Of a stretch of DNA of 36,692 nucleotides, positions 17,980-33,378 are shown in pieces. The stretch comes from Corallococcus sp. CA047B (GTDB lineage: Bacteria > Myxococcota > Myxococcia > Myxococcales > Myxococcaceae), in contig NZ_RAWD01000050.1 in NCBI RefSeq assembly GCF_003612065.1, forward strand, positions 1 through 36,692, read 5' to 3'. Under the pieces are notes generated by a model that worked only from the letters and a program-made list of their open reading frames with translations, was not told the origin of the DNA and did not search any database. A program made the position numbers and the translations under genes. Every line of letters starts with the position of its first letter. The stretch's first letter is position 1.

Positions 17980-20664
17980 ATGAACCGACTCCTCCTGTCG
18001 CTTGTTGTCGCGGTGACCGTCCGCTGTGCCCACGCGCCGGAGGCCGCGCCCCCGGCCGCCGCGCCTGCCACCCTCGCATGGCCGGAGCCCCGGCCTCCCG
18101 TGCTGCGGCTGCCGGACACGGTGCGGCCCCTGCGCTACGCATTGGACCTGAAGCTGCTGCCCGCGGAGGCCACCTATCCGGGCAGCGTGAGCATCGACGT
18201 GGAGGTGCGCGAGCCGGTGCGTCAGGTGTGGCTGCATGGCCAGGACCTGGAAGTGACGCGCGCCAGGGTGACGGTGGGCGGCCGCACCTTCGACGCGAAG
18301 CCCGTCTCCGAAAGTGAAGGACGGCTGGGATTGCTGTTGCCGGAGGAGCTGCCCGTGGGCACGGCGACGCTCACCCTGGACTTCACCGGCAAGGTGGACC
18401 GCGAGCGCAGCCAGGGTGTCTATGGACAGGCGGAGGGCGGTGAGTCGTATCTCTACACGTTCTTCGAGCCCATCGACGCGCGGCGTGCCTTCCCGTGCTT
18501 CGACGAGCCGGCCTTGAAGGTGCCCTGGAAGCTGCGCCTGACGGTGAAGGCGGGGCACGTGGCCCTGGCCAACCATCCCGTCGTCTCGCGCGAGCCCGTG
18601 GCGGACGGGCTGGAGCGCGTCACGTTCGCGGAGAGCCGGCCCATGCCCAGCTACCTGGTGGCGTTCATCGTGGGGCCGTTCGACGTGGTGGAGGCGGGCG
18701 CGGTGGGGCGCGCGAGCGTGCCCCTGCGCTTCATCGTGCCGAAGGGGCGGGGCGGGGAGACGCGCTACGCCGCGAGCGTCACGCCTCGCATCGTGAAGGG
18801 CCTGGAGGACTTCTTCGACCAGACGTATCCCTACGAGAAGCTGGATGTGGCGGTGGTGCCCCGGTACTGGGGCACCATGGAGCACCCGGGCCTCGTGGCG
18901 CTCGGGCAGCCGTTGACGCTGATTCCTCCCGGGGAGGAGACGCTGAACCGGCGCCGTTCCTATGCGGTCATCGCCAACCACGAATTGGGGCACTACTGGT
19001 TCAGCGCCGTCGTCACCAATGCCTGGTGGGATGACATCTGGTTGAACGAGTCGTTCACGGCGTGGCTGGATCGGCAGACGGTGGACCGGCTGGAGCCGTC
19101 CTGGAGCTTCCAGCAGGAGCGGGCCATGTCCGCGACGGAGTCGGCGTTGGCTTCGGATGCGCTGGAGGCCGCGCTGCCGGTGCGCAAGCCGGTGGCGAGC
19201 AACGACGACATCGTGGGTTCGTTCGACAATGGGACGACGTATGACAAGGGCTCGTCCGTCATCGCCATGTTCGAGGCGTGGCTGGGGGCGGAGCGCTTCC
19301 GCGACGTGATGCGAAGCTATGTCCGCAAGCACGCGTGGGGCGCCGTGACGACGGAGGACTTCCTGGCGGAGGTGTCCCAGGCGGCGGGGCCGGAGGTGGC
19401 GAGCTCCTTCAAGGGCTTCATCGAGAAGGGCGGGGCGCCACGAGTGTCCGCCCAGGTGACGTGCCCGGCGGGGGGCGCGCCGACGGTGAAGCTGTCGCAG
19501 GAGCGGTATCTGCCCGCCGGCTCCCGGGCGAGCACGCAGCAGGAATGGCAGGTGCCAGTGTGTCTGCGCGCGGGGACGGGGACGCGGTCATCCCGGGTGT
19601 GCTCGATGTTGCAGGGGCCTTCGATGGAGGTGGCGCTGCCGACGAAGCAGTGCCCGGCGTGGGTCCTGCTCAACGCGGGCGGCACGGGGTACTACCGCGG
19701 TGGCTACTCGCGTGAGCAGCTCGCGAAGCTGCTGGCGACCCCGGCTTCGGCGTTCACGACGGGAGAGCAGGTGGCCCTCTGGGCGGACGTGGACGCGGCG
19801 GTGGGGCGCGGAGACCTGCCGCTCGGGGAGGCGCTGGAGGCCGTGCCTGCCACGGCGCGCTCGCCGGAGCGGCTGGTGGTGGAGAGCGGGGCCGCGCTGC
19901 TCTGGCAGGTGCGGCTGGACCGGCTGTCGGTGGAGGAGCGGAAGCGATTTCGCGCCTGGGTGGCGTCGCTCTATGCGCCGCGTGCACGGGCGCTGGGGTG
20001 GGTGTCGAGGCCCGGCGACGGTGACGACGTGAAGCAGTCGCGTTCGCTGTTCCTGCGGCTGGCGGGCGGGCTGGGTGAGGATCCGGCGCTGCTGAAGGAA
20101 GCCACGCCGTTGGTGCGTGCGTGGCTCGCGGACCGGAAGTCCGTGGACCCGGAGGCGCTGGCCAGCGCGCTGCCCCGGGCGGCGTCCCACGGCGATGCCT
20201 CGCTGTTCAATGCATTGTTGGAGGCCGCGAAGAAGGAGCAGGACCGCAACGAGCGCGTCCGGCTGCTGTCGGCGCTGAGCTATTTCCGGCAGCCGGAGCT
20301 GGAGCGACGGGCACTGGGATTGGTGGTGGGGTCGGACTTCGACACGCGGGATGCCCTGGCCATCCTGAAGATGTCGCTGAACATGCCGGAGACGCAGCCT
20401 CTGGCCTGGGAGTTCTACCGCCAGCAGTTCGACGTGCTCTCGCAGCGACTGCGCTCGGATGAGCAGGGTGGACTCATCAACCAGGTGGGCAATCTCTGTG
20501 ATGCGACCCAGCTCGCGGAAGCGGAGGCCTTCCTTGCGCCCCGCGTGAAGCGCGTGGAGGGCGGGCCGCGCGCACTGGCCCGGGCGCTGGAGTCCATCCG
20601 GCTGTGCATTGAATCCGCGAAGCTGCAGCAGCAGAGCGTCCAGGACTTCCTCCGCGCTCATTAG
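17980..20664 (+). CDS. secreted M1-family aminopeptidase N-like metallopeptidase
   Basis: MNRLLLSLVVAVTVRCAHA signal peptide. GTMEH (GxMEN-type exopeptidase motif). HELGHYWF (HExxH) with the downstream WLNESF glutamate (third zinc ligand), followed by a C-terminal ERAP1_C-like helical domain. Confidence 0.85.
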   Translation: MNRLLLSLVVAVTVRCAHAPEAAPPAAAPATLAWPEPRPPVLRLPDTVRPLRYALDLKLLPAEATYPGSVSIDVEVREPVRQVWLHGQDLEVTRARVTVGGRTFDAKPVSESEGRLGLLLPEELPVGTATLTLDFTGKVDRERSQGVYGQAEGGESYLYTFFEPIDARRAFPCFDEPALKVPWKLRLTVKAGHVALANHPVVSREPVADGLERVTFAESRPMPSYLVAFIVGPFDVVEAGAVGRASVPLRFIVPKGRGGETRYAASVTPRIVKGLEDFFDQTYPYEKLDVAVVPRYWGTMEHPGLVALGQPLTLIPPGEETLNRRRSYAVIANHELGHYWFSAVVTNAWWDDIWLNESFTAWLDRQTVDRLEPSWSFQQERAMSATESALASDALEAALPVRKPVASNDDIVGSFDNGTTYDKGSSVIAMFEAWLGAERFRDVMRSYVRKHAWGAVTTEDFLAEVSQAAGPEVASSFKGFIEKGGAPRVSAQVTCPAGGAPTVKLSQERYLPAGSRASTQQEWQVPVCLRAGTGTRSSRVCSMLQGPSMEVALPTKQCPAWVLLNAGGTGYYRGGYSREQLAKLLATPASAFTTGEQVALWADVDAAVGRGDLPLGEALEAVPATARSPERLVVESGAALLWQVRLDRLSVEERKRFRAWVASLYAPRARALGWVSRPGDGDDVKQSRSLFLRLAGGLGEDPALLKEATPLVRAWLADRKSVDPEALASALPRAASHGDASLFNALLEAAKKEQDRNERVRLLSALSYFRQPELERRALGLVVGSDFDTRDALAILKMSLNMPETQPLAWEFYRQQFDVLSQRLRSDEQGGLINQVGNLCDATQLAEAEAFLAPRVKRVEGGPRALARALESIRLCIESAKLQQQSVQDFLRAH

Positions 20665-20984
20665 GAGTCGCTGCGTGCTTTTGCGGGAGATCGCCTCTCA
20701 TCTCGCGAAGACTTGGCTTGACGCGTTATTGAAAGTGGATTGGGGGGCGTGTGCGCGATTGTGAGGGGGCAATGCCAGTTGATCTCGTAAGCGGGGTTTG
20801 CCGGATTGACAGGGGCGCGTTAGCTGTTGGATGCTTCGTCAATCTTGTGCGGGGCGGACTTGTGGGGGAGGAGGGCACCTTGGTGCCCTGTGCTGTCTGG
20901 AAGGTGCTTGTGTGAGTCGAATCCCTTCCCAGGCGCAGGCCAGGAAGGATCTGCTCCACTGCCCTCGGTGTTGCCAAGGCTGTG

Positions 20985-21917
20985 TCAGTCCCGTCGCGCT
21001 GAAGGTGGGGGCCCAGGTCGCCATCCACTCCAGGTGACGAGGACCGCCATCTGGTAGCCGACCGTGTACCAGGGGCCTTGTTCAGGACCGTAGAAGCGGG
21101 CGGCTTGCTGGCGCAAGGCATCTCCCTTGAGTCGGCCTTCGAGGATGCTCACGAAGAAGGCGTCCAGCTCCGCGAAGTGTTGGGGGAAGTTCGCGATGTC
21201 CCGGTCCCAGCGCTCCCGGTCCTCGACCTTGCTCACCGCATGGGGATGCGCGTCGGGTCCCCCCGCGGCCGCGAGCATGGCGAAGCCTTCTCCAAAGGCG
21301 CCCATCCATTGGCAGGTGTCCTGGACCTGCTGGGACTGCGTTTCGACCTTCGCGAGGAGGTCGGGACGCTTGCGCCCTCCAAGCCCCACGTGATGCGATT
21401 CGTGGGCGACCATGACCTCGAACTGCGGCTGGGTGAGGTTCGGATCGAGATACAGGAAGATCGAAGGCTCCTTGCCGCCCAGGTCGAAGACGAAGGAGTT
21501 GTCCTGTGGCTTGATCATCGGGCAGAGGGTGAACGATTGCGGACTCCCGGTGGGAAGGAAGCGCTGCACCTTGCGCGAGAGTGATTCCAGGTCCGTCTTC
21601 TTCCATTCCTGAAGGGAGCGGAGGAAGGTCGCTCGCTGGCTTCGCACTTCCGGATTCGTGAGGTGACGGCGGAACGCCTCCAGGTCGACTGTCCGAGGCG
21701 TTCCCAGTGTCTTGCCCAGCGCGACCTCTCGCGCTTCGAGCCGCACGAAGCACTTGCTGCGAAAGAGCTTCCTCCAGTCGGAGGGGCTGGCCGCCTCGCC
21801 TTTCTCCAGGATGGCGAGGGCCGCGTCTGCTTCGGAGGTGTCCCACCGGATGTCGAGCCGGGCCGCTGGCGTCGCGCCAAGAAGGTGTGCGGAGGTCATC
21901 AGGGAAAGAACAAGCAT
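20985..21917 (-). CDS. secreted hypothetical protein with an HESHH (HExxH) motif, possible zincin-like peptidase
   Basis: MLVLSLMTSAHLLGATPAA signal peptide and ...EVMVAHESHHVGLGG. No closer family recognised from memory. Confidence 0.55.
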   Translation of the reverse strand: MLVLSLMTSAHLLGATPAARLDIRWDTSEADAALAILEKGEAASPSDWRKLFRSKCFVRLEAREVALGKTLGTPRTVDLEAFRRHLTNPEVRSQRATFLRSLQEWKKTDLESLSRKVQRFLPTGSPQSFTLCPMIKPQDNSFVFDLGGKEPSIFLYLDPNLTQPQFEVMVAHESHHVGLGGRKRPDLLAKVETQSQQVQDTCQWMGAFGEGFAMLAAAGGPDAHPHAVSKVEDRERWDRDIANFPQHFAELDAFFVSILEGRLKGDALRQQAARFYGPEQGPWYTVGYQMAVLVTWSGWRPGPPPSARRD

Positions 21918-22023
21918 GGGGCCGCCTTGTGCATGAGCCTGAGCGGTGCGGATTCTATACCCGTTGGAAGGTGGCGGCTCATCCAATTCAATTCATGGCA
22001 GAGGTGCCACGGGCGGCGCCGGG

Positions 22024-24106: not shown

Positions 24107-24790
24107 ATGGAACGAACGATGGATGCAGGGCCGGACCTCGCCGCGCTGGCGGGCGCCGTGGGGGATGCCACGCGGATCCGGATGCTGGAGCTGCTCATGG
24201 AGGGGCGGTCGCTCGTCGCCAAGGAGCTGGCCTTCGGCACCGGCGTCAGCCCCGCGACGGCCACCGTGCACCTCAAGCGCCTGGAGCAGGCCCGGTTGAT
24301 CCGCTCGACCCGCCAGGGGCGCAACAAGGTGTTCCGGCTCGCCACGCCCACCGTGGCGCGGATGGTGGAGGCGCTGATGACGGTGGCCGTCCGAGGACCC
24401 CGGGCCTCGGCCACGCCGGAGCCGCTCCGGGCCGCTCGCTACTGCTACGACCACCTGGCGGGAAGGCTCGGGATGGGCATCACCGATGCGCTCCTGCGCG
24501 GTGGGCACCTCTCCCTGCGGCGCCGCGCCTTCGCGCTGACCCCGAGCGGCGAGGATTGGTTCGAGGCCTTCGGCATCGAGCTGGCCCCCTTGAGAGAACA
24601 GCGCCGCCAGTTCGCCCACCGCTGTCTGGACTGGAGCGAGCGGCGCGACCACCTGGCCGGGGCGCTGGGGGCGGCGCTCGCCTCACGGGTGTTCTCGCTG
24701 GGCTGGGTGGAACGTCAACCCGACTCGCGCGGACTCGTCGTCACGCCCTCGGGCCAGCGGGGCCTGCGCCGTCACTTCGGCGCGCTGTGA
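24107..24790 (+). CDS. ArsR/SmtB-family winged-helix transcriptional regulator with a C-terminal extension
   Basis: IRMLELLMEGRSLVAKELAFGTGVSPATATVHLKRLEQARLIRSTRQGRNKVFRL is an ArsR-type HTH. The protein is 227 aa, so it carries an extra ~120-aa C-terminal domain. Divergent from the P450/ABM pair. Confidence 0.7.
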   Translation: MERTMDAGPDLAALAGAVGDATRIRMLELLMEGRSLVAKELAFGTGVSPATATVHLKRLEQARLIRSTRQGRNKVFRLATPTVARMVEALMTVAVRGPRASATPEPLRAARYCYDHLAGRLGMGITDALLRGGHLSLRRRAFALTPSGEDWFEAFGIELAPLREQRRQFAHRCLDWSERRDHLAGALGAALASRVFSLGWVERQPDSRGLVVTPSGQRGLRRHFGAL

Positions 24791-25617
24791 GCGGAGAGCT
24801 CCGCGCGTTCCTTCGCGCGCTGGATGCCAATGGACACGGCCTCGCCCACGACGCGTGAGAGCCCGTGGATCTCCAGCGCTTCCAGCCCCGCCACGGTGAT
24901 GCCGCCCGGGGTCGCCACCTCGGCGATGAGGCCCGTGGTGGTGGCGCCGGGTTCGGCCAGGAGCTTCGCCGCGCCAATCAGCGTGCCCCTCGCGAGTGCC
25001 GCCGCCTCCGTGGCCTCCATCCCATGGGCCATCGCGGCCTGGGCCAGCGCCTCCACGAAGCGGAACACATACGCGGGGCCCGTGCCGGACACACCGGTGC
25101 AGACCGTGAGCTGCTCCTCCGTCACCCACAACGGCTGGCCCGTCGCCGCGAACAGGGTGTCGGTCGCCTGCCGCGCGGCCTCCGTGACCCGCGTGCCCTC
25201 CGTGAGCGGTGTCAGCCCCGCGCCCACGCCCACCGGGGTGTGCGGCATGGCCCGGATGACGGCGACCGTGGACGGCAGCGCCGCTTCCAACTGCGCGAGG
25301 CGCACGTCCGAGGACAGCGACACCACCACCTGGCCTGGCTCCAGCGCGGGGGCGATGAGCGCCATCACCTCCGCCATCTGCGCCTGTCGCACCGCGAGCA
25401 TCACCACCGCCGCGCCGCGCACCGCCTGGGCGTTGTCGGTGAGGACGTGCACGCCGTGCCGGGAGCGCAGCTCCTCGCCCCGTTCGGGCCGGCGCACGGT
25501 GACGCGGAGGTCGGACGGGCTCACCTGTCCGGAGCGCAGCAGCCCCTTGATGATGGCTTCCGCGAGCTTTCCTCCACCAAGGAGGACGATGGGTGTGGGG
25601 ACGGGATGGGACGCCAT
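24772..25617 (-). CDS. proC: pyrroline-5-carboxylate reductase
   Basis: IVLLGGGKLAEAI (NADP-binding GxGxxA)...AMPHTP...VATPGGITVAGL are P5CR signatures, 281 aa. Its 3' end overlaps the convergent ArsR gene by 19 bp. Confidence 0.85.
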   Translation of the reverse strand: MASHPVPTPIVLLGGGKLAEAIIKGLLRSGQVSPSDLRVTVRRPERGEELRSRHGVHVLTDNAQAVRGAAVVMLAVRQAQMAEVMALIAPALEPGQVVVSLSSDVRLAQLEAALPSTVAVIRAMPHTPVGVGAGLTPLTEGTRVTEAARQATDTLFAATGQPLWVTEEQLTVCTGVSGTGPAYVFRFVEALAQAAMAHGMEATEAAALARGTLIGAAKLLAEPGATTTGLIAEVATPGGITVAGLEALEIHGLSRVVGEAVSIGIQRAKERAELSAHSAPK

Positions 25618-25641
25618 GGCGGGCAGTCTACTCCTAGAACT

Positions 25642-26184
25642 TCACGCCCACGGTGGTGCGAAGCTGGGTGTCCATCGCCGGCACCGTCGCGGGGGGGCGC
25701 TGTCGTAGGTGAGGTTGAAGCCGATGCCCACCGTGCCGAAGGTGAGCCCGGTGGCCTCCTCGTTGAACAGCACGAAGCGTGGCCCGGCACCCAGGAGGGC
25801 TCGCAACCGGAGCCGGCGGAACTCGTTGTATTCGTGCTGGACGAACGCCTCGCCGGACACGCGCTCCGTGAAACGCCTCCGGAAGCGCACGTGCTCCAGG
25901 ACCTGGCTGACGATGCGCTCGCCGCTGGCGAAGGAGTACTCGCCCCGGATGACGCCCAGCCAGACGTTGCGCTCGGAGCGGAGCTGCCCCACCAGCGAGC
26001 CGCGCACGGAGAACAGCTGCGTGCTGCCCGTGCGCCAGTCGCCACCCAGTTCGATCGCGGCCGCCGGTCCCAGCTCCGCCTTCTCGTCGAAGAGCGCCTG
26101 CACGTTGACGATCTGCGCGGACGCGCTGCCCGCCAGGAGCAGCCCCGCCAGCACCCCCCACCCGACCTTCTTCGCGTGATTCAT
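25642..26184 (-). CDS. putative outer-membrane beta-barrel protein, apparently frameshifted near the C-terminus
   Basis: MNHAKKVGWGVLAGLLLAGSASAQ signal peptide with alternating beta-strand-like sequence. As read, the product ends ...YDSAPPRRCRRWTPSFAPPWA. Adding one base to the C7/G7 run at 25691-25697 gives ...YDSAPPATVPAMDTQLRTTVGVKF*, ending at 25635 with the classic OMP C-terminal Phe. Confidence 0.55.
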   Translation of the reverse strand: MNHAKKVGWGVLAGLLLAGSASAQIVNVQALFDEKAELGPAAAIELGGDWRTGSTQLFSVRGSLVGQLRSERNVWLGVIRGEYSFASGERIVSQVLEHVRFRRRFTERVSGEAFVQHEYNEFRRLRLRALLGAGPRFVLFNEEATGLTFGTVGIGFNLTYDSAPPRRCRRWTPSFAPPWA

Positions 26185-26423: not shown

Positions 26424-27092
26424 ATGGCAACCGAAAACGTGAAGGCCGGGGGCTCCGGGGGCTCGAGCACCCCACGGGCTGGGACCCAGGGAACGGAGCA
26501 ACCCAGGCAGGCCGACGTCCCACGCGAAACCGCTCCCACCCGCGCTTCCTCCAGGGGCTCGGGAATCTCGCGCCGCGAAGCGCAGGTCCCCGCCGTCCAG
26601 AGGGGAGGCATCTCCCAGAGTCCATTCGGGTTCTTCCGCCGGATGATGGAGGACATGGATCAGCTCTTCATGGACTTCGGGATGGGACGCGGCCTCGGCC
26701 TCCGGAGCGGAGGCGACGTGGAGTTCGGCACCTGGTCGCCGCAGGTGGACGTGGTGGAGCGGGACGGAAACCTCCTGGTGAGGGCCGACCTGCCCGGGAT
26801 GAAGCAGGAGGACATCCAGGTCGAGGTGCGCGAGGACCTGCTCATCCTCGAAGGTGAACGGAACTTCGAGCAGGAGGAGGAGCAGGAAGGCATCTGGCGC
26901 ATGGAGCGCGACTTCGGCTCATTCCAGCGCGTCGTACCGCTCCCGGAAGGCATCGACACGGAATCCATCCAGGCCCGGTTCGAGGATGGCGTCCTGGAGG
27001 TCTCCATGAAGCTGCCGCAAGCCAGGGCCCTGGGCCGGCGCATCGAAGTGAAGGGTGGCGCCAAGGGCGCTCCGAAGAAGCCCATCCACTGA
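26424..27092 (+). CDS. Hsp20/alpha-crystallin family small heat-shock protein with a long disordered N-terminus
   Basis: GGAGG 5 nt upstream of the ATG. The alpha-crystallin domain is SPQVDVVERDGNLLVRADLPGMKQEDIQVEVREDLLILEGER...FQRVVPLPEGIDTESIQARFEDGVLEVSMKLP. Confidence 0.85.
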   Translation: MATENVKAGGSGGSSTPRAGTQGTEQPRQADVPRETAPTRASSRGSGISRREAQVPAVQRGGISQSPFGFFRRMMEDMDQLFMDFGMGRGLGLRSGGDVEFGTWSPQVDVVERDGNLLVRADLPGMKQEDIQVEVREDLLILEGERNFEQEEEQEGIWRMERDFGSFQRVVPLPEGIDTESIQARFEDGVLEVSMKLPQARALGRRIEVKGGAKGAPKKPIH

Positions 27093-28060: not shown

Positions 28061-28325
28061 GGCATGTGGGTGTCACGCCAGCAAGCCGCTGCGGGCATTC
28101 TGTGTTTGGGAAACACCCGCGCGATACGGCCGCCAACATCGCGTGCGCGAGCCCTGGACTTTCGCGGCCGGTCGGGTCGCGCCAGGGGCGAAGACGACCC
28201 AGATTCCAACGCAACCCTGTGCAGGTAGCTTCGCGCCGCGCTCCTTTCGACGCTTCCCTGGAGGTGCCCTGCACCCGGGAGCTGGAAGAGGAGCCGCGCC
28301 CGTTCCGAAATCGAAAGAGGCTCGT

Positions 28326-29558
28326 ATGAAGTCAGAAGCACGGCAGTGGTGGGGGTGGATGCTCTTCGTGGTCAGCGCCGTGATGGTGGGCTGTGGGGGC
28401 GAGCCGTCCGCCTCCGGTGCCACCCAGGAGGCACGGACGCAGCCACTGGCGTTGAGGACCGCCAGCAACCGCCTCACGCAAGGGGGCCGGATCGCCGCCG
28501 GCTGGTACCACTCCGTGGCCGTGCTGGAGGACGACACCGTGTGGGCCTGGGGCGAGAACACCTTCGGCCAGGTGGGCGACGGGACGAACGCGACCCGGAG
28601 CTCGCCGATGCAGGTGGCGGAGCTGACGGGTGTCACGCAGGTGAGCGGGGGCGCCTACCACTCGGTGGCGTTGAAGGCGGATGGCACCGTGTGGACCTGG
28701 GGCTACAACGTCTATGGCCAGCTCGGTGACAGGACGACCTTCGCGCGCAACGCGCCGGTGCAGGTGGACGGCCTCACGGAGGTCACCGCCCTCGCGGCGG
28801 GGGGCTACCACTCGGTGGCCTTGAAGGCGGACGGCACGGTGTGGACCTGGGGCTACAACGGCTACGGCCAGCTCGGGGATGGGACGGACACGGAGCGCGC
28901 CCAGGCCCTTCAGGTGCCGGACCTCACGGGAATCACTTCCATCGCCACGGGGCGCAACCACGTGCTGGCGTTGAAGGAAGACGGCACGGTGTGGATCTGG
29001 GGCGACAACACGTTTGGCCAGTTGGGTGACGGGACGACGGTGCACCGACGTTCACCGGTGGAGGTGCAGGGCCTGACGGGCGTCACGGGCGTCTTCGCTG
29101 GCATCTTCCACTCGTTCGCCGTGAGACAGGACGGCACGGTGTGGGCCTGGGGCTACAACGTCTATGGACAGCTCGGAGATGGGACGACCCTGGAGCGCCA
29201 TGCGCCCGTGCAGGTGTTGGACCTCACGGACGTCACGGCCCTGGCCGCGGGGGGCTTTCACACGCTGGCCCTGAAGCAGGACGGCACGGTGCGGGCCTGG
29301 GGCTACAACGGCTACGGCCAGCTCGGGGATGGCACCGACAATGAGCGCAGTAGGGCCGCGCTGGTGCCGGACCTCACGGGCGTCACGACCGTGGCCGCTG
29401 GCTACAATCACTCGCTCGCCGTGAATGCGGACGGCACGGTGTGGACCTGGGGCTACAACGATTACGGCCAACTGGGTGACGGGACGACCGTGCACCGACG
29501 TTCGCCGGTGGAGGTGCCTGGACTGGCGGGCGCTGAAAACGCACTCCAGGGTCCCTGA
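28326..29558 (+). CDS. RCC1-repeat (regulator of chromosome condensation-like) beta-propeller lipoprotein
   Basis: MKSEARQWWGWMLFVVSAVMVGCGG signal plus lipobox, with AAGAGG RBS. Seven consecutive ~52-aa RCC1 repeats (GxYHSVALKADGTVWTWGYNxYGQLGDGT...PVQVxGLTGV). Confidence 0.85.
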   Translation: MKSEARQWWGWMLFVVSAVMVGCGGEPSASGATQEARTQPLALRTASNRLTQGGRIAAGWYHSVAVLEDDTVWAWGENTFGQVGDGTNATRSSPMQVAELTGVTQVSGGAYHSVALKADGTVWTWGYNVYGQLGDRTTFARNAPVQVDGLTEVTALAAGGYHSVALKADGTVWTWGYNGYGQLGDGTDTERAQALQVPDLTGITSIATGRNHVLALKEDGTVWIWGDNTFGQLGDGTTVHRRSPVEVQGLTGVTGVFAGIFHSFAVRQDGTVWAWGYNVYGQLGDGTTLERHAPVQVLDLTDVTALAAGGFHTLALKQDGTVRAWGYNGYGQLGDGTDNERSRAALVPDLTGVTTVAAGYNHSLAVNADGTVWTWGYNDYGQLGDGTTVHRRSPVEVPGLAGAENALQGP

Positions 29559-30840: not shown

Positions 30841-31002
30841 GCTGAAGTCATCGCGGACCGGTGTGGCGTCCCCCTGACCCAGCGGCGTGATGGGTGCACG
30901 GTCGGTAAGGTCGCCGACTCCCTTTTCTGGTGATCCTCCGGATACGTCTCCGCGGCGACGCCTGGGAAGGAGTCCATCGAATACCGCGTGCGGAGAAACA
31001 CG

Positions 31003-33378
31003 ATGTCTCAAGAGCGAAGAAGCAGGCTGTTCTGTCTGGCTGTGGGCCTGATGGTCGCGCTGGCCGGGTGCGTCTCCGAGGATGCGTCCGGAAGCGCGCA
31101 GGTGGTGGTGACGCTGCCTCAGGGGCTGAGTGCCAGTGATGTGGTGCGGGTGGAGTTGACGGTGAGCGGAGAGGGGATGACCGCTCGCACCGACGCGCTG
31201 GTGAAGACGGGCGCCCAGTGGGGCGGCGTGCTGGGAAAGCTTCCTGAGGGAGAGGGGCGCACCTTCCATGGAGAGGCTTTCGACGCGCAAGGTGCGAGGC
31301 GCTACGAGGGAGAGGCGACGGGTGTCCGAATCTTCACCGGTGAGACGACGGCGGTCGCGCTGGTGCTCCAGGAAGTGAATGCCCCCGCGCCCTTTGAAAA
31401 CACGGCGCCCGTCATCACCTCGCTGGTGGCCAGTCCTTCGACGGTCGGACCGGAGGGGGTGGTGGCGCTCCAGGCGAGCGCGGAGGACTCCGACGCGGAG
31501 GACGACCTCACGTATGCATGGACAGCGAGCGCGGGCAGCTTCAGTTCGCCTGGCAGCCTCACCACGACGTGGGTGGCGCCTTCCGTGCCCGGCGCGGTGG
31601 TGTTGACGTTGACGGTGACGGACTCGAAGGGGGCCTCGGACGCCGTCAGCCTGAGCATCACGGTGACGAGTGGCACGGGGAGCGTGGCCGTCAACGTGAC
31701 GGTGAATACGTGGCCCAGGGTGACAGGGGTGACGGCGATGCCCTCATCCGTGGCGGTGGGGCAGGCCACGTCCGTGACGGCCGTGGCGGGTGATGCGGAT
31801 GGGGACAGCCTGGGCTACCAGTGGACGTCGGATTGCCAGGGCACGTGGACGGATGAGACCTCTCCGAACGCGAGCTTCACGCCGACAGCGCAGCCGCCCA
31901 TGGGAAGCGCGTGCGCCCGGTGTTCGCTGAGGGTGACGGTGGCGGACGGCAGGGGAGGGCAGACAACAGGGACGCTGGGCGTCTGCGTTGGGCCCTCGAC
32001 GCAGGCGCGCTTCCCGCCGGAGGTGGTGGAGACGTTCCAGTCCGTCGTCAGTGTTCCGGCGGAGGGGGGAACCGTCGTCTTCAGGGTGAGGGCGAAGGAC
32101 CCGCAGGACAGCGCGCTCACCTTCGCCTGGGCCACCAACGTGGGGGCGCTGGGGGCGGCCTCCAGCGGCGGTGTGACGAGCGAGGTCCTCTGGACGGCGC
32201 CTTCGTGCATCCCCGAGGGCACGACGCCCGCGGTGACGGTGTCCGTCACCAACGCGCTGGGGCTCTCCTCCAGCGCTTCCTTCGGTCTGCAAGGGGGCAC
32301 GGTCTGCACGGCACCGTCGGGGCGCGTGATTCGAATCGCGGGCTCCTACTACTCCACCATGGCGTTGAAGCAGGACGGCACCGTGTGGACCTGGGGCCGA
32401 AACAATTTTGGCAACCTTGGGGATGGGACGACCGTCAACCGCGACACGCCAGTGCAGGTGCAGGGCCTGACGGGGGTGACTGCCATTGCACCAGGCGACA
32501 CCCACATGCTCGCCCTGAAGCAGGACGGCTCCGTTTGGGCCTGGGGTGACAACGGTGCCTATGAGCTGGGGGACGGGACCACGGTCCCTCGTCCCACCGC
32601 GGGGCCGGTGCCGGGTCTGACGGACGTCGTGGCGATCGCGTCAGGTGGCTATCACTCGCTGGCCTTGAAGCAGGACGGCACCGTGTGGGCCTGGGGCTGG
32701 AATATCGACGGCTCCCTTGGAGACGGCTCGAAGGCCGCGCGCGCGGTTCCGGTCCAGGTGCTGGGGTTGACGGGCGTCGTGACGCTCCGAGCTGGCTGGC
32801 ACCACATGATGGCCGTGAAGCAGGACGGGACCGTGTGGGGCTGGGGGCTCAACTCCAGAGGTCAACTCGGGGACGGGACGACCGCTGAGCGCCTCACGCC
32901 AGTCCAGGTCCAGGGCTTGACGGATGTCGCGGCCATTGTCCCTGCCGCCTACCACACGCTGGCCTTGAAGCAGGATGGCACGGTGTGGGCCTGGGGCTAC
33001 AACGACTACGGACAACTCGGGAATGGGACGACCACCAGCAGCTCCTCGCCAGTGCAGGTGCCGGGCCTGACAGGTGTCGTCGCCCTTGCCGGGGGCCGAT
33101 ACCACTCGCTGGCCCTGAAGCAGGACGGCACCGTGTGGGCCTGGGGTTGGAACCACCGTGGCCAGTTCGGGGATGGGACGACCACCCACCGCGGCGTGCC
33201 AGGACGGGTGCCAGGCCTGACGGGGGTTTCGGCACTCACCGCGGGGCAGCAGTCCACGTTTGCCTTGAAGCAGGACGGCACCGTGTGGGCCTGGGGTGAC
33301 AATGGCTGGGGCGCCCTGGGGGCCGGACCGTCCACGGACCAGCACTCGCCCGTGCAGGTCCACGTGTTGGGGCACTGA
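31003..33378 (+). CDS. lipoprotein with N-terminal Ig-like domains (paralogous to those of the Kelch lipoprotein) and a C-terminal seven-repeat RCC1 beta-propeller
   Basis: MSQERRSRLFCLAVGLMVALAGC lipoprotein signal (ATG at 31003 with GGAG 7 nt upstream; the GTG at 30988 is an alternative start). Ig-like modules are ~60% identical to those of the 15480..17828 protein (NAPAPFENTAPVITSLVASPSTV... vs NVPGPFDNSAPCIDSLVASASTV...). Then seven RCC1 repeats (YHSLALKQDGTVWAWGxNxxGQLGDGT). Confidence 0.85.
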   Translation: MSQERRSRLFCLAVGLMVALAGCVSEDASGSAQVVVTLPQGLSASDVVRVELTVSGEGMTARTDALVKTGAQWGGVLGKLPEGEGRTFHGEAFDAQGARRYEGEATGVRIFTGETTAVALVLQEVNAPAPFENTAPVITSLVASPSTVGPEGVVALQASAEDSDAEDDLTYAWTASAGSFSSPGSLTTTWVAPSVPGAVVLTLTVTDSKGASDAVSLSITVTSGTGSVAVNVTVNTWPRVTGVTAMPSSVAVGQATSVTAVAGDADGDSLGYQWTSDCQGTWTDETSPNASFTPTAQPPMGSACARCSLRVTVADGRGGQTTGTLGVCVGPSTQARFPPEVVETFQSVVSVPAEGGTVVFRVRAKDPQDSALTFAWATNVGALGAASSGGVTSEVLWTAPSCIPEGTTPAVTVSVTNALGLSSSASFGLQGGTVCTAPSGRVIRIAGSYYSTMALKQDGTVWTWGRNNFGNLGDGTTVNRDTPVQVQGLTGVTAIAPGDTHMLALKQDGSVWAWGDNGAYELGDGTTVPRPTAGPVPGLTDVVAIASGGYHSLALKQDGTVWAWGWNIDGSLGDGSKAARAVPVQVLGLTGVVTLRAGWHHMMAVKQDGTVWGWGLNSRGQLGDGTTAERLTPVQVQGLTDVAAIVPAAYHTLALKQDGTVWAWGYNDYGQLGNGTTTSSSSPVQVPGLTGVVALAGGRYHSLALKQDGTVWAWGWNHRGQFGDGTTTHRGVPGRVPGLTGVSALTAGQQSTFALKQDGTVWAWGDNGWGALGAGPSTDQHSPVQVHVLGH

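Follow-up and report, generated by a model that had tools for sequence, protein, structure and literature searches.

The locus described here raises the question of whether a gene for an outer membrane protein of the soil predator Corallococcus sp. CA047B, the reading frame of which is interrupted at a run of seven identical bases, has been misread, is switched on and off, or has been lost. The gene is located on the minus strand of a 36,692-nt stretch of DNA, which as a whole is hereafter called the window. The original prediction, which had recognized the run, left three options, namely, a sequencing or assembly error, a recent inactivating mutation, and slipped-strand phase variation of a surface protein, and it called for a comparison with the orthologous gene of related strains. 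This comparison confirmed the frameshift, with all the orthologues being in frame and carrying a tail of the restored type. Judging from the aligned sequences, it is likely that the gene is a real, recently inactivated unitary pseudogene of Corallococcus sp. CA047B, which carries two independent disabling lesions (Table 1).

Table 1. Parts of the DUF481 gene remnant and its downstream neighbor in the window, and barrel strands in the model of the closest orthologue
Feature	Position	Strand	Remarks
Remnant of the DUF481/YdiY-family outer membrane beta-barrel gene, from ATG to ancestral TAG	25634..26184	-	Two lesions compared to the 258-aa orthologues
ORF as read, 180 aa, WP_233602055.1	25642..26184	-	Last 15 residues (RRCRRWTPSFAPPWA) are an out-of-frame translation; TGA stop at 25642-25644
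C7 run with one base missing (G7 on the + strand)	25691..25697	-	From DNA alignments with nine orthologue loci
Junction of the in-frame 225-bp (75-codon) deletion	25734..25735	-	TTC GG[CA] CG GTG; orthologue residues 151-225 missing
Ancestral C-terminal coding segment, now out of frame (ATVPAMDTQLRTTVGVKF, then stop)	25634..25690	-	Last barrel strand and C-terminal assembly signal; DNA almost unchanged
Intact start codon and signal-peptide-like N terminus (MNHAKKVGWGVLAGLLLAGSASA/Q)	26116..26184	-	Read from the sequence; common to the orthologues
proC (pyrroline-5-carboxylate reductase), intact downstream neighbor	24772..25617	-	Begins 16 nt past the ancestral stop
Strands 1-6 of the P0001 model	residues 39-52, 57-69, 73-86, 89-104, 109-120, 125-141
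Strands 7-12 of the P0001 model	residues 145-160, 171-188, 191-202, 209-219, 225-236, 246-257

Reading frame at the C7 run

The run was found as predicted, since positions 25690 to 25698 of the plus strand read C-GGGGGGG-C. It is the sole homopolymer of at least seven bases in the 36.7-kb window, which contains 20 runs of six bases. As read, the minus-strand ORF encodes 180 aa and terminates with DSAPPRRCRRWTPSFAPPWA (in a longer excerpt, NLTYDSAPPRRCRRWTPSFAPPWA). When one C is inserted into the run, the C terminus becomes DSAPPATVPAMDTQLRTTVGVKF (in a longer excerpt, NLTYDSAPPATVPAMDTQLRTTVGVKF), followed by a TAG stop at 25634 to 25636.

The alignment showed that the restored tail of 19 aa agrees with that of the orthologues, which is ATVPAMDTQLRTTVGVKL in a Myxococcaceae metagenome-assembled genome (MAG) and in C. 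terminator and ends with VGVKF in C. sicarius. The same agreement holds for the C termini of nine intact orthologues, and the restored tail can thus not be ascribed to chance. Furthermore, the tail in the shifted frame was recovered by tblastn with 95% identity, and G or C occupies the third codon position in 17 of 18 codons of the restored frame versus 10 of 15 in the tail as read. It follows that a single added base does restore the C-terminal strand of an outer membrane protein, as had been proposed. The C terminus, described in the original prediction as canonical and aromatic, is aromatic in part of the family but not invariably so, the last residue being Phe in four of the nine orthologue loci and Leu in the other five. 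The protein as read ends with RRCRRWTPSFAPPWA, without a hydrophobic or aromatic C-terminal strand, and the ancestral ending TTVGVKF lies out of frame.

Family assignment, orthologues, and synteny

The gene belongs to the DUF481 family, with a match to Pfam PF04338 that scores 41.1 bits as read and 49.4 bits after repair of the frame (gathering threshold, 21.1 bits). The match covers only positions 1 to 112 of the 210 positions of the profile and falls short of the full-length domain of 12 strands and about 250 aa. The family corresponds to TCDB 1.B.75, which is listed with 12 strands (PMC4827864), and its function, including that of Escherichia coli YdiY, is unknown (bioRxiv 10.1101/2024.12.09.627556). 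A search of a large protein collection retrieved 59 relatives, nearly all of 248 to 287 aa. The closest ones, from Corallococcus species and the Myxococcaceae MAG, are intact proteins of 258 to 259 aa with 81 to 95% identity, and their alignments cover only 82% of the repaired query. At the nucleotide level, the remnant is 94% identical to the orthologue of the MAG and 91% identical to that of C. terminator. Moreover, a hydrophobic N-terminal stretch ending in ASA/Q, a putative signal peptide, is conserved in the alignment of the orthologues.

The AlphaFold2 model of the closest orthologue, P0001, is a 12-strand barrel (mean pLDDT, 86; pTM, 0.79), the best PDB matches of which include the 12-stranded barrels NanC (TM, 0.58/0.71) and KdgM-type porins. 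Thus, the window gene resembles the DUF481/YdiY family (PF04338; TCDB 1.B.75; E. coli YdiY) in scoring above the Pfam threshold and in having an orthologue that is modeled as a 12-strand barrel. Different from the members of that family, it keeps in frame only the N-terminal half of the domain and strand 11, with strands 8 to 10 deleted and strand 12 frameshifted.

The gene order PhzF-DUF481-ProC-HTH-P450 is conserved. In the window, proC comes immediately after the DUF481 gene, as it does in four of the orthologue loci (L001, L005, L006, and L008); three others, those of C. terminator (L004), C. soli (L007), and strain Z5C101001 (L010), have no proC there. The window (26424 to 27092, plus strand), L004, and L007 have an Hsp20 gene between PhzF and the DUF481 gene. 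In L001, no Hsp20 gene is present at this site, and in L005, L008, and L010, it flanks PhzF on the opposite side. The gene order is therefore locally fluid.

A 225-bp deletion in the same gene

The alignments with the orthologues revealed a second lesion. The DUF481 gene lacks 225 bp (75 aa) in frame, with the junction at 25734/25735, and the missing block, which in the protein alignment sits between GLTFG and TVGIGFN, is present in every orthologue as well as in the Pfam DUF481 profile. When mapped on the P0001 model, the deletion takes away the second half of strand 7, strands 8 to 10, and the first residue of strand 11, corresponding to about 4 of the 12 strands. It joins two strands of the same orientation, 7 and 11, and leaves an even number of strands, namely, eight. 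The microhomology at the junction amounts to only 2 bp (CA). A deletion mediated by repeats was considered and rejected: in the orthologues, a 7-bp direct repeat, GGCATCG, occurs near both ends of the block, but the junction uses the 2-bp CA. The metagenome scan returned no match to the deletion junction.

Since 75 internal residues are also gone, the protein would remain incomplete even with the run repaired. The original prediction was therefore right about the site of the frameshift, the one missing base, and the strand that it costs, but the frameshift is not the sole lesion of the gene, the 225-bp deletion having been overlooked. The case illustrates that the mending of a homopolymer frameshift is no proof that a gene is otherwise intact; here, it was the comparison of length with the orthologues that exposed the larger lesion.

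The in-frame deletion also bears on whether a shortened protein could work, the barrel having passed from 12 to 8 strands. In that case, the frame would be genuinely unbroken, or else -1 slippage on C CCC CCG, ribosomal or transcriptional, would rescue it in part. The fusion of strands of the same orientation, with eight strands left, could hint at a shortened foldable protein and thereby count against a pseudogene, and the AlphaFold2 model of the frame-repaired protein with the 75-residue deletion does contain eight strands, with a mean pLDDT of 78.5. However, the pLDDT drops to 42 at the junction, the alignment used for this model was built from 12-strand homologues and biases it, and the Foldseek comparison with solved barrels gave no good match (TM, 0.2 to 0.4; root mean square deviation, above 10 Å). 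Moreover, a deletion is expected to be in frame by chance in one case out of three. A viable eight-strand barrel is disfavored by the low-confidence junction and by the want of a good barrel match. Changes in barrel strand number through gain or loss of hairpins, known from studies of outer membrane protein evolution and engineering, are similar in that an even number of strands is removed in register; they differ from the present case, in which there is nothing to indicate folding of the shortened barrel and the model matches no known eight-strand barrel.

As for slippage, GCC CCC CCG is, in the zero frame, a formal match to the pattern X XXY YYZ, and the sequence of the orthologues is exactly what a -1 slip would give. 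Nevertheless, the downstream 91 nt fold at -31.6 kcal/mol versus a mean of -32 for shuffled sequences (z = 0.11), so that the RNA is no more structured than the shuffles and no stimulatory structure was detected in this segment. Programmed -1 frameshifting was rejected in view of this unremarkable downstream RNA, of the in-frame state of all the orthologues, and of a heptamer that matches in form only. Neither the deletion nor the frameshift is shared by any orthologue. Overall, a functional shortened protein appears very improbable; were it real, CA047B would show a barrel in the course of evolving a new number of strands.

Integrity of the neighboring genes and quality of the assembly

If the run had been miscounted during sequencing or assembly, the true sequence would be C8 (GCC CCC CCC), and the product would be an in-frame protein of 183 aa with only the 75-aa deletion. 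In agreement with such an error, the site is the longest homopolymer in the window, the tail downstream of the run has not decayed, and C8 could be attained through synonymous changes alone, as one orthologue has CCC CCC at the tract and the intact orthologue of C. soli has an in-frame G8 elsewhere. In general, Illumina sequencing rarely miscounts runs of seven to eight bases at the consensus level. The genome of CA047B (RAWD00000000) was obtained by Illumina HiSeq 2500 sequencing (2x250) with a mean coverage of 81.4x and was assembled with SPAdes 3.7 (PMC6306037).

The genes around the lesion are intact. About 13 neighboring genes align over their full length in a single frame at the protein level, the DUF481 gene being the only split one, and no further frameshift was found in them despite the 20 runs of six bases. 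Across the approximately 17 kb that can be aligned to relatives, the tract is the only uncompensated coding indel with a length that is not a multiple of three, the others being intergenic or compensating alignment pairs. In addition, the same gene carries the independent 225-bp deletion, which cannot be a homopolymer miscall and, having no flanking repeats, is not plausible as an assembly artifact, and the gene thus already looks dead. The sequencing method and its depth (81x), the intact single-frame neighbors, and the presence of another lesion in this gene make it unlikely that the homopolymer was miscounted.

One further switch of coding frame was noticed in the window, near positions 1700 to 1757, where an RdgC-like ORF (1068 to 1757, plus strand) overlaps an ORF in another frame (1627 to 2433, plus strand). 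The former matches only positions 21 to 156 of the 298 positions of the RdgC profile, and the latter shows no similarity to RdgC even at an E value of 5. The two ORFs are probably two genes rather than the trace of a second frameshift.

The 180-aa ORF as read is identical to RefSeq entry WP_233602055.1 (P0074 in our set), which is named DUF481 domain-containing protein. RefSeq treats it as a normal protein, a point that speaks against a pseudogene. The protein collection holds no GenBank (RKH) accession for this ORF, unlike the neighboring ProC, which is 100% identical to RKH17871.1/WP_120532927.1 of Corallococcus sp. CA047B. Together with CA031B and CA031C, strain CA047B has been placed in Group B species 4 (PMC6306037). 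No DUF481 protein of CA031B or CA031C (C. praedator) was found in the collection, though their ProC (P0061, 99% identical) is present, which hints that these two strains, too, have no intact DUF481 gene.

Origin of the C7 tract

In the DNA alignments with the nine orthologue loci (L001, L002, and L004 to L010), the coding strand of the orthologues reads AGC GCN CCG CCC GCG (S-A-P-P-A), and that of the window reads AGCG-CCCCCCC-GCG, with one base fewer. The codons vary among the orthologues, with GCG, GCA, or GCT for Ala, CCA or CCC as variants for the first Pro, and CCT for the second one. The longest C run at this tract is C6, which occurs in L010 only (CCC CCC). Because long runs are lacking at this position in all the orthologues, the tract is a new one, neither ancestral nor a conserved switch.

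The history of the tract bears on phase variation, according to which the C run would be a contingency tract that turns a surface protein on (C8) or off (C7). The gene encodes an outer membrane protein, a change of one unit restores its frame, and a poly-C/G run of seven is at the lower edge of the lengths that are prone to slippage. In this respect, the locus is similar to the poly-G/C contingency loci of Neisseria, Haemophilus, and Campylobacter, in which the frame of an outer membrane protein gene is set by the length of a G/C run. Different from those loci, however, the tract is only 7 nt long, is unconserved (it is absent in 9/9 orthologue loci), and is located at the 3' end, within the last 10% of the gene. 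Furthermore, the protein in the on state would still lack residues 151 to 225, about 4 of the 12 strands, and would not be complete. The scan of metagenome contigs found no match to either the C7 or the C7+1 allele of the tract. In the window, 7-mers of G or C are depleted approximately 20-fold (1 observed versus 21 ± 7 in dinucleotide-preserving shuffles), which suggests that such runs are avoided here. On these grounds, the proposal of phase variation finds no support, and we consider it extremely improbable.

The frameshift site is the single exception to the window-wide depletion of G/C homopolymers of at least seven bases. In the intact orthologue of C. soli (L007), an in-frame G8 is located at positions 1638 to 1645 of the locus (nt 138 to 145 of the gene), within CTG GGG GGG GAC (L-G-G-D). 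Intact copies of the DUF481 gene can therefore tolerate long runs, and this example shows that such runs arise by drift in this GC-rich gene.

Probable recent loss of the gene

Among the options that had been put forward, a recent inactivating mutation is the one favored by the two lesions and the intact orthologues. The orthologues are intact in conserved synteny, and the disabling lesions occur in the window only, as is typical of a unitary pseudogene. The following course of events may be proposed. The 225-bp in-frame deletion would have removed residues 151 to 225, about 4 of the 12 strands. One base would have been lost in the GCC-CCG/C-CCC codons, where the removal of the G between C4 and C3 would yield C7 directly; alternatively, synonymous changes may have first produced a transient C8, from which slippage would then have taken one C. 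The frameshift exchanges the last strand and the C-terminal Bam insertion signal for 15 junk residues.

The product as read is predicted to have a signal-peptide-like N terminus and seven strands in frame ahead of these residues. Outer membrane protein assembly through Bam needs a C-terminal strand with a hydrophobic or aromatic terminal residue, and for this reason the product should not assemble. Having kept its putative signal peptide and seven strands but being presumably unable to close the barrel, it would most likely be exported and then degraded. We infer the loss of the protein's function and the order of the two events, like this fate of the product, from the lesions.

The presence of two lesions in one gene of 777 bp is what would be predicted from relaxed selection after the first hit. 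The substitutions specific to this lineage are seven synonymous and three nonsynonymous ones (V10G, Y101F, and Q126R), a pattern indistinguishable from that of intact orthologues and a count with too little power to demonstrate relaxed selection. Thus, the substitutions give no positive sign of relaxed selection, and recent lesions are not expected to leave one. The tail, although no longer in frame, hardly differs from the DNA of the orthologues. Because the 7:3 changes resemble those of intact orthologues and the DNA of the tail is nearly unaltered, both lesions are recent.

The gene shares with ordinary bacterial pseudogenes that originate by deletion and frameshift the presence of intact syntenic orthologues, several disabling lesions, and little other decay. 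Nothing material sets it apart from them; the kind of event is already known, and the window gene is one more instance. It is almost certain that WP_233602055.1 derives from a decayed gene, and a pseudogene flag would probably be appropriate for this entry; beyond housekeeping, this correction is of little importance. The DUF481 gene is conserved and syntenic in the relatives that we recovered from Corallococcus, Myxococcus, and Archangium. The loss of such a conserved gene suggests that it is dispensable in CA047B, which offers a small handle on a family of unknown function.

Other features of the window

A segment of about 1.36 kb (20655 to 22021) is absent at the same position in the MAG (L001) and in C. 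terminator (L004). Its GC content is 62 to 65%, compared to 70 to 74% in the flanks, and it contains an ORF (20985 to 21986, minus strand) for a DUF5700 putative zinc peptidase (E = 1e-18). The segment is probably a strain-specific insertion.

An ORF of 763 aa (4478 to 6769, plus strand) matches the Pfam families MVP_shoulder (E = 1e-44), Vault, and Vault_2/3/4, and it looks like a bacterial homologue of the eukaryotic Major Vault Protein. Upstream of it, tandem GDSL-lipase paralogues are located at 2477 to 3439 and 3406 to 4335 on the plus strand (Pfam Lipase_GDSL, E of about 1e-21 to 1e-22 each). Finally, the plus strand encodes RCC1-repeat (beta-propeller) proteins at 28143 to 29558 and at about 30934 to 33378, and the internally repetitive DNA of these genes gives rise to many self-similar BLAST hits.
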